Below the pieces are notes generated by a model that was not told the DNA's origin, made no database searches, and saw only the letters and a program-made list of their open reading frames with translations. The position numbers and the translations under genes were made by a program. A stretch of 64,000 nt of DNA from Escherichia coli (lineage in GTDB: Bacteria; Pseudomonadota; Gammaproteobacteria; Enterobacterales; Enterobacteriaceae), in assembly GCF_046105845.1 (NCBI RefSeq), contig NZ_CP151004.1. One strand, 5' to 3'. Below are positions 25,341 through 51,119 of this stretch, piece by piece. How positions within the stretch are numbered: position 1 is the first letter of the stretch; each line of letters opens with the position of its first letter.

Positions 25341-26006
25341 TTAACTCGCCTGCAAAGCGTTGATTTCGGATTTATCTGCCAGTCTTTTCAACAGCATATT
25401 GAGTAATACGCCATACATTGGCAGGAAGAAAACGATACTGATTAACACTTTGAAACAGTAATCGACCAGCGCGATTTCCATCCAGTGTTCAGCCATAAAG
25501 GCATCCGGGCTACGCCAGAAGGCTATGAAGAAGAAGGCCAGCGTGTCGCTGACGTTACCAAACAGGGTGGAAGCCGTCGGTGCCAGCCACCAGCGACGAC
25601 TCTGACGCAGGCGGTTAAAAACGTGCACGTCGAGGATTTGCCCCAGCGCGTAGGCCATGAAACTGGCGGTGGCGATACGGGCGACAAACAGGTTGAAGTG
25701 GGCGAGCGCGCCGAATCCCTGCCAGGAACCCATATAGAACAGCGACGAGATGACGTAGGAGATCAGCAACGCCGGGATCATCACCGCAAAGATGATACGA
25801 CGGGCCAGCGGTGCGCCAAAAATACGCACGGTCAGGTCGGTAGCAAGGAAAATAAACGGAAAGCTAAATGCGCCCCAGGTGGTATGGAAACCAAAAATGG
25901 AGACGGGAAGCTGAACCAGATAGTTACTGGAGGTGATCACCAGAAGATGAAATAACGATAACCAGAACAACGCCTTATAGCGTTGAGTTTGCGAGAAAAC
26001 GTTCAT
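25341..26006 (-). CDS. yhhQ: Queuosine precursor (preQ0/preQ1) transporter YhhQ
   Basis: 221-aa multi-TM ORF starting MNVFSQTQRYKALFWLSLFHLLVITSSNYL (COG1738 family). Confidence 0.92.
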   Translation of the reverse strand: MNVFSQTQRYKALFWLSLFHLLVITSSNYLVQLPVSIFGFHTTWGAFSFPFIFLATDLTVRIFGAPLARRIIFAVMIPALLISYVISSLFYMGSWQGFGALAHFNLFVARIATASFMAYALGQILDVHVFNRLRQSRRWWLAPTASTLFGNVSDTLAFFFIAFWRSPDAFMAEHWMEIALVDYCFKVLISIVFFLPMYGVLLNMLLKRLADKSEINALQAS

Positions 26007-26048
26007 ATTGTACCTTTTTGATTAACCATTGGGGTGAGGGAACCCAAT
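26007..26048 (-). promoter_or_regulatory. Candidate preQ1-I-like riboswitch / translational control hairpin in the yhhQ 5' leader
   Basis: Leader RNA reads AUUGGG-UUCCCUCAC-CCCAAU followed by the A-rich tail UGGUUAAUCAAAAAGGUACAAU-AUG: a 5-6 bp stem, 9-nt loop and A-rich tail containing the SD, as in class I preQ1 aptamers. Confidence 0.35.
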
Positions 26049-26226
26049 ACGTACGACACGTCTGTTACCTTAACATAATAACGTGCTGACCCTTTTTTCG
26101 AGCCGCCGCATGATACTGCTTTACGTTGACAATGCAATGGTTAATTTTCACGCAATCGTTAACCTGGTTTGCTTACGGACTCACAGGGCGTAAACTAGCG
26201 CCGTTTTTTTATGTGATGAGAAGAAA

Positions 26227-26472
26227 ATGACCGATCTCTTTTCCTGCCCTGACCACACACTCGACGCACTTGGCCTGCGCTGCCCGGAACCAGTAATGAT
26301 GGTGCGCAAAACAGTGCGCAATATGCAGCCAGGTGAAACGTTGCTGATTATCGCCGACGATCCGGCCACTACCCGCGATATTCCTGGGTTTTGTACCTTT
26401 ATGGAACACGAACTGGTTGCTAAAGAGACGGATGGATTGCCTTATCGTTATTTGATTCGCAAAGGCGGTTGA
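26227..26472 (+). CDS. tusA: Sulfur carrier protein TusA
   Basis: 81-aa ORF with CPxP motif ([14 protein letters not shown]). Confidence 0.95.
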
Positions 26473-50908: not shown

Positions 50909-50998
50909 GCGATCAGGAAGACCCTCGCGGAGAACCTGAAAGCACGACATTGCTCACATTGCTTCCAGTATTACTTAGCCAGCCGGGTGCTGGCTTTT
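50909..50998 (+). ncRNA. ryhB: Fur-regulated iron-sparing small RNA RyhB
   Basis: GCGATCAGGAAGACCCTCGCGGAGAACCTGAAAGCACGACATTGCTCACATTGCTTCCAGTATTACTTAGCCAGCCGGGTGCTGGCTTTT matches RyhB; ends in a GC hairpin plus U-tract; Fur-box-like AT-rich sequence immediately upstream. Confidence 0.92.
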
Positions 50999-51119
50999 TT
51001 TTGATCTTTCGTTTTCAATTTATCCACGGGAAGTGCTTGTGTTCGTTATGCGCACTCCAGTAGGAACCACGTCCGCTTTGCGCTAAGGTGTAAATAATCA
51101 CCTTAAAAAGGACGAAATC

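Follow-up and report, generated by a model that had tools for sequence, protein, structure and literature searches.

The yhhQ leader in the Escherichia coli DNA analysed here (a stretch of 64,000 nucleotides, hereafter the window) carries a class I type III preQ1 riboswitch, which very probably acts as a translational OFF switch. The minus strand at 26048..26013 is AUUGGGUUCCCUCACCCCAAUGGUUAAUCAAAAAGG, and it showed zero mismatches to the RNA listed as 'WT Eco riboswitch 36-mer' (AUUGGGUUCCCUCACCCCAAUGGUUAAUCAAAAAGG) in Table S1 of Schroeder, Kiliushik, Jenkins and Wedekind, J Biol Chem 2023 (PMC10622847). The window contains a single copy of this 36-mer, and none appeared in 100 shuffled sequences. 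The authors of the published study had located the E. coli 36-mer through a BLAST search with the McCown et al. 2014 consensus for type III, and they pointed out that yhhQ lies downstream of it (PMC10622847). According to PMC10622847 and PMC11625349, McCown et al. 2014 defined the type III subgroup from ca. 293 sequences situated ahead of yhhQ in Pseudomonadota. Publications thus already cover the element together with its ligand, structure and mechanism, and the present result is a rediscovery, not a new find.

A preliminary description of this DNA had proposed a class I preQ1 aptamer upstream of yhhQ and a translational switch acting on that gene. The first proposal is supported by the letter-for-letter agreement with the published E. 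coli type III riboswitch, and the second by the burial of the SD in the co-crystal and the preQ1-dependent repression of a reporter, both obtained with the identical RNA. The description had added that it knew of no such element annotated in E. coli. This remains true of the RefSeq record of the locus, in which no riboswitch feature is placed between tusA and yhhQ, but it does not apply to the literature, given that the subgroup was defined in 2014 and a characterisation of the E. coli element followed in 2023.

Organisation of the yhhQ leader

The minus strand at 26048..26007 reads ATTGGG-TTCCCTCAC-CCCAAT-GGTTAATCAAAAAGG-TACAAT and is followed by ATG at 26006..26004, with 6 nt separating the end of the aptamer from the start codon of yhhQ. 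The arrangement reported earlier, consisting of an AUUGGG stem, a loop running from UUC to CAC and an A-rich tail containing the SD, matched these letters in every detail. The features of the locus are listed below; a window coordinate equals 26049 - n, where n is the position in the 36-mer.

26013..26048, minus strand: full preQ1-I type III aptamer with its expression platform (A1 to G36), assigned by identity to the published 36-mer
26043..26048, minus strand: P1 5' arm AUUGGG (A1-G6), with UGGG (26046..26043) as its conserved portion, from the predicted hairpin and leader comparison
26041..26042, minus strand: UU motif following P1 (U7, U8), invariant in 80/80 loci
26037..26040, minus strand: anti-SD CCCU (C9-U12), invariant in 80/80 loci
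26034..26036, minus strand: L2 loop CAC (C13, A14, C15), with C15 (26034) as the specificity base, the pairing partner of preQ1
26028..26033, minus strand: P1 3' arm CCCAAU (C16-U21), from the predicted hairpin and leader comparison
26020..26027, minus strand: variable L3 linker GGUUAAUC (G22-C29), named in PMC10622847
26013..26019, minus strand: A-tract and SD, AAAAAGG (A30-G36), invariant in 80/80 loci
26019..26016, minus strand: A-tract A30-A33, in which A33 (26016) reads the preQ1 edge
26016..26013, minus strand: SD AAGG
26015..26013, minus strand: P2 3' strand A34-G36
26004..26012, minus strand: 6-nt spacer UACAAU (26012..26007) and yhhQ AUG (26006..26004), from the sequence and the ORF
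25341..26006, minus strand: yhhQ, the regulated gene, an ORF of 221 aa, from the ORF list and the RefSeq name
26110..26137, minus strand: candidate yhhQ promoter, with a -35 box TTGCAT (26137..26132), a 16-nt spacer and a -10 box TATCAT (26115..26110), inferred by species comparison

In RefSeq, the product of yhhQ is named 7-cyano-7-deazaguanine/7-aminomethyl-7-deazaguanine transporter, and the orthologues of YhhQ belong to the Pfam family Vut_1. The gene is flanked by tusA, which is divergent, on its upstream side and by dcrB on its downstream side.

The consensus features of type III, as stated in PMC11625349 and PMC10622847, were found at this site. As is typical of type III in Gammaproteobacteria, the element lies in the 5' leader of yhhQ (COG1738) and overlaps the SD, a layout shared by 80 species of Enterobacteriaceae. 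Its P1 is short and closed by G-C pairs (UUGGG/CCCAA), and folding added one more A-U pair in E. coli. The loop UUCCCUC (26042..26036) is pyrimidine-rich and opens with UU directly after the P1 5' strand, while A14 and C15 (26035 and 26034) form the AC motif that precedes CCCAA and were invariant in 80/80 loci. The variable linker is followed by the tail AAAAAGG, in line with the 4-5 conserved adenines and the AAGG SD of the consensus, the AGG of which can pair with the loop CCU. The P1 hairpin was also recovered by MFE folding of the leader, with a z-score of -0.32 that was no better than those of shuffled sequences; a poor score is expected here, as the hairpin has only 4-6 bp and the pseudoknot depends on the ligand and lies beyond what MFE folding can represent.

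Published properties and proposed mechanism

By ITC, the 36-mer was reported to bind preQ1 with a KD of 57.9 nM at a 1:1 ratio (N 0.9), and the KD improved to 14 nM when the L3 linker was shortened (PMC10622847). A co-crystal structure with preQ1 was solved at 2.30 A for a 30-mer version (PDB 8FZA), in which the SD lies in P2 and A27 in 30-mer numbering, which is A33 of the 36-mer, contacts preQ1 (PMC10622847). In the same structural account, U7 touches preQ1, U8 forms a triple with the SD base A33, and the adenines of L3 dock into the P1 minor groove (PMC10622847). The pseudoknot helix P2 is formed by C10, C11 and U12, which pair with G36, G35 and A34, respectively; the crystal pairs in 30-mer numbering are U11-A28, C10-G29 and C9-G30 (PMC10622847).

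Regulation was demonstrated with a GFPuv reporter in E. coli cells carrying a queC deletion, in which preQ1 repressed expression 6.1-fold with an EC50 of 291 nM, and the substitutions U7C, C15U, C16U and A33C abolished or nearly abolished the response (PMC10622847). U7C caused the loss of binding as well as of regulation, while C15U raised the KD about 64,000-fold and the EC50 311-fold (PMC10622847). A 2024 review treats the E. coli element as the type III representative and describes it as showing 'full SDS occlusion' (PMC11625349).

Based on these data, the regulation of yhhQ is proposed to proceed as described below. As published for this RNA, the 36-mer binds one molecule of preQ1 and folds into a compact H-type pseudoknot, the pocket floor of which is provided by P1 (UUGGG/CCCAA). 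preQ1 pairs with C15 and is additionally recognised by U7 and by the initial SD base, A33, while the remaining SD bases A34-G35-G36 pair with U12-C11-C10 to form P2 and the A-tract of L3 sits in the P1 minor groove. As the SD bases are located either in the ligand pocket or in P2, the whole SD AAGG is buried. On the chromosome, the yhhQ mRNA is expected to contain the aptamer, and a higher intracellular preQ1 level would stop 30S binding at the yhhQ SD. The blocked SD would then shut off production of the preQ0/preQ1 salvage transporter, probably closing a feedback loop in queuosine metabolism.

The published work on the E. coli element was carried out with the isolated aptamer and a modified reporter, whereas the window holds the native context, namely the 6-nt spacer to the AUG, a 5' leader of ca. 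55 nt and a hairpin in the coding sequence. In the reporter, the P1 closing pair had been changed to C-G and the SD had been strengthened to AAGGAGG, and the construct carried a foreign coding sequence and no native flanks (PMC10622847). Since the P1 pair and the SD were altered in this way, the regulation of chromosomal yhhQ is something that we infer from the reporter, and a search of the literature found no experiment on chromosomal yhhQ with its native 5' leader.

YhhQ imports preQ0 preferentially, which raises the possibility that the physiological ligand is preQ0 rather than preQ1 and that the switch senses the transported substrate. YhhQ was indeed characterised as a preQ0 transporter (PMC5372724), and earlier in-line probing of one type III representative suggested a preference for preQ0, as stated by the authors of PMC10622847. 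SPR measurements on the exact 36-mer pointed the other way: the KD was 120 nM for preQ1 and 16 uM for preQ0, a 133-fold discrimination in favour of preQ1, and the half-life of the preQ0 complex was 4.5 s (PMC10622847). preQ0 as the physiological ligand is therefore very unlikely.

Relationship to other preQ1 riboswitches

The element in the window and the published E. coli preQ1-I type III riboswitch (PDB 8FZA) share the same 36 nt, the same gene (yhhQ) and the same organism group, with zero sequence difference. The parallel drawn in the preliminary description was the Thermoanaerobacter aptamer, given there as CUGGG...CCCAG-UUAACAAAACAAGG, which agrees with the published Tte construct CUGGGUCGCAGUAACCCCAGUUAACAAAACAAGG. 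The Tte riboswitch (preQ1-I type II, Thermoanaerobacter tengcongensis, PDB 6VUI) has the H-type pseudoknot plan in common with the E. coli element (Eco). In both, P1 is short and G-C-rich (CUGGG/CCCAG in Tte and UUGGG/CCCAA in Eco), an AC motif with the specificity C precedes the P1 3' strand, L3 is A-rich and the tail ends in the SD bases GG; both are translational. The loop of Tte contains purines (UCGCAGUAAC) and only the first two SD bases are buried, whereas the loop of Eco is pyrimidine-rich (UUCCCUCAC), its P2 has three canonical pairs and all of AAGG is buried. In Eco, unlike in Tte, the ligand is contacted by an adenine of the SD, and the discrimination of preQ1 over preQ0 is 17-fold for Tte and 133-fold for Eco (PMC10622847).

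The preQ1-II riboswitches (Lactobacillus rhamnosus and Streptococcus pneumoniae, RF01054) resemble Eco in that they sense preQ1, fully occlude the SD and exert translational control over a preQ1 salvage transporter gene (queT). Unlike Eco, they have a larger fold (HLout pseudoknot), another mode of ligand recognition and an unrelated sequence, and they occur in Firmicutes.

Conservation of the leader

A set of yhhQ leaders was collected by a protein-anchored scan with one genome per species, which yielded 80 yhhQ loci of Enterobacteriaceae at 88-100% protein identity. The core GGGUUCCCU(C/A)ACCCC, also written GGGTTCCCT(C/A)ACCCC, and the tail AAAAAGG stood upstream of the ATG in 80/80 of these leaders. 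C13 was the sole variable core position, being changed from C to A in 2/80 loci. The invariant runs measured 9 and 5 nt in the core and 7 nt in the tail. Complementarity between loop and tail across enterobacterial yhhQ leaders, which had been named earlier as a feature whose loss would speak against a riboswitch, was retained throughout, AGG being complementary to the loop CCU in 80/80. The surroundings of the core behaved differently: the 30 nt on its 5' side showed essentially no conservation, and the linker was 5-10 nt long and unrelated in sequence in 77 of the 80 leaders and measured 46-72 nt in the other three. In contrast to the aptamer, the coding sequences of the same loci had only 10 invariant third codon positions out of 100, and their longest invariant run was 6 nt in 650 nt. 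Within the species, the 47-nt stretch that runs from the aptamer up to the AUG was identical in 5412 of the 5413 matching complete E. coli genomes, while the 251-nt region around the aptamer was <99% identical in 3035 E. coli genomes.

Whole-leader MAFFT alignments misplaced the invariant AAAAAGG tail because the lengths of the linker and the spacer vary, and the conservation of P2 and the tail was therefore counted by an anchored regular expression. Among the 41 distinct leaders, the three G-C pairs of P1 were invariant, and the fourth pair, U3-A19, was U-A in 39 and A-U in 2 (Buttiauxella). The two outer P1 pairs of E. coli were formed in only 26/41 and 11/41 of these leaders. Covariation in P1 is thus thin, with one compensated pair in one lineage, and 18 of 500 shuffles attained the observed score. 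Both sides of P2 are invariant, so that it offers no test of covariation and is neither supported nor contradicted in this way. The case rests on the conservation contrast and the published experiments rather than on covariation.

We also built a covariance model from 21 equal-length yhhQ leaders of non-Escherichia origin. In the window, this model found a single site at 26013..26049 on the minus strand, with a score of 38 bits (E 8.5e-11), the next best score being 11.3 bits. The signal of the aptamer exceeds chance.

These data bear on whether the leader is simply a ribosome-binding region of the usual kind that happens to contain a small hairpin, in which the conservation would stem from constraint on the SD and initiation or from a DNA operator, and no ligand would be sensed. 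Such a reading agrees with the MFE stability of the leader, which is indistinguishable from that of shuffled sequences, with the lack of a match to Rfam and with the presence of a conserved PurR-box-like site in the same intergenic region. Against it, the 15-nt pyrimidine-rich core lies about 20 nt upstream of the SD and, apart from C13, is invariant in 80 species; the linker that joins it to the SD drifts, a pattern for which constraint on the SD alone is insufficient. Furthermore, the identical RNA bound preQ1 with nanomolar affinity, gave a co-crystal structure and conferred preQ1-dependent repression that was sensitive to mutation (PMC10622847). An incidental hairpin is extremely improbable in the light of these observations, and we retain the riboswitch.

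Rfam searches

Infernal searches with Rfam 15, proposed in the preliminary description as a check, gave an unfavourable outcome. No PreQ1 match was obtained at E<=10 on 25800-26300 or 26000-26060, and none at the gathering threshold in the whole window; the site at 26013..26048 on the minus strand thus falls short of the gathering-threshold score that defines membership of RF00522. The same search at E<=10 returned no PreQ1 match for 12 orthologous yhhQ leaders from other genera (L007, L017, L021, L032, L036, L037, L049, L058, L060, L068, L076 and L079). Since the type III leaders of these 12 genera were missed as well, the silence of Rfam was not counted against the riboswitch, and it seems to reflect insufficient sensitivity of the Rfam class I model towards the type III subgroup, whose members are very short and pyrimidine-rich. 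The absence of a covariance-model hit, which had been put forward as grounds for refutation, is a false negative on a validated riboswitch, and a scan equating the lack of an Rfam match with refutation would have thrown out a true positive. The standard pipeline (Rfam covariance models and RefSeq) leaves unmarked a validated riboswitch whose leader occurs in over 5400 complete E. coli genomes. The practical value of the present analysis lies in a calibration case, in which a riboswitch called by eye was confirmed, and in an annotation note. The sole Rfam match at the gathering threshold in the window was the RyhB small RNA at 50938..51002 on the plus strand (RF00057, 83.1 bits, E 3.6e-14).

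Flanking sequences

A promoter-like pair consisting of a -35 box TTGCAA or TTGCAT, 16 nt and a -10 box TAT(C/G/T)AT was found in 79 of the 80 enterobacterial loci, and the candidate yhhQ promoter of the window is its E. coli counterpart. A scan with the sigma-70 consensus returned no promoter at its threshold, below which the candidate -35/-10 pair scores. Between the -10 box and the aptamer core lay 14 to 164 nt, depending on the species, and 64 nt in the window, and the native E. coli 5' leader ahead of the aptamer would measure ca. 55 nt. Because this distance varies, the stretch between the -10 box and the aptamer (26049..26109, minus strand) is a hotspot of insertions specific to individual lineages. 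The E. coli segment has a AAAAAAGGG run at about 26096..26088 that resembles the SD-containing tail.

On the other side of the start codon, a hairpin CAACGCU-AUAA-GGCGUUG at 25968..25985 on the minus strand, corresponding to +22..+39 of the yhhQ coding sequence, was flagged as terminator-like. Among 55 distinct enterobacterial sequences, 98.5% of the cells of its 6-bp core (CAGCGC/GCGYUG) were paired, and the one pair that varied was GC in 26, GU in 23 and AU in 6, A.C being absent. Outside Met and Trp codons, only four third positions are invariant over the first 100 codons, and Ala codon 12 (GCG) supplies one of them. Since a conserved Q-R-x-K-A-L motif is encoded where the hairpin lies, coding constraint confounds this conservation signal, and the U-tract of the hairpin is weak.

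It was considered on this basis whether the switch has outputs beyond SD occlusion, through the hairpin at +22..+39, through Rho-dependent termination or decay, or through the E. coli-specific leader of ca. 55 nt. The terminator-like hairpin at 25985..25968 (minus strand) with its largely paired core, the variation of the distance between the promoter-like box and the aptamer from 14 to 164 nt and the fact that the reporter carried none of the native flanks leave room for such outputs. On the other hand, the 36-mer joined to a foreign coding sequence suffices for 6.1-fold repression, and the hairpin lies inside the conserved Q-R-x-K-A-L codons and has little of a U-tract. We regard further outputs as unlikely; they would add to the explanation by SD occlusion and would not replace it. 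The more specific idea that the native platform exceeds the 36-mer, with the coding-sequence hairpin, located just past the 30S footprint, cooperating with the preQ1-bound pseudoknot, is slightly less probable still. If it were true, the hairpin could reinforce translational repression or cause the untranslated mRNA to be terminated prematurely or degraded, and the native regulation of yhhQ would depart from the result obtained with the minimal reporter.

The three long linkers in the leader set are due to an L3 insertion of 46-72 nt, seen in Raoultella terrigena, Enterobacter sp. 10-1 and a Klebsiella-like MAG. The insertion loci are L075:~490-600, L079:~490-600 and L076:~55-138, and insertions were also present in L082, L083 and L085. 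The inserted sequence folds by itself into a hairpin of -12 to -23 kcal/mol closed by CCC/GGG, and the leaders with the insertion keep the aptamer core and the AUAAAAAGG tail intact. An exact-protein look-up with the Klebsiella-like YhhQ returned only 4 contigs.

The intergenic region between tusA and yhhQ also contains a putative PurR site. The PurR operator consensus is ACGCAAACGTTTGCGT, and AGGTTAACGATTGCGT at 26150..26165 on the minus strand agrees with it at 12 of 16 positions. The PurR-box-like core AACGnTTGCG was found in 79 of the 80 enterobacterial tusA-yhhQ intergenic regions. Judged from its sequence, this PurR-like site fits the membership of yhhQ in the PurR regulon, in which the gene was placed by a remark in the literature (PMC5372724). 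Finally, a terminator-like hairpin GGCGTAAACTAGCGCC followed by GTTTTTTTAT was observed at 26187..26202 on the plus strand, just upstream of the tusA start (26227).
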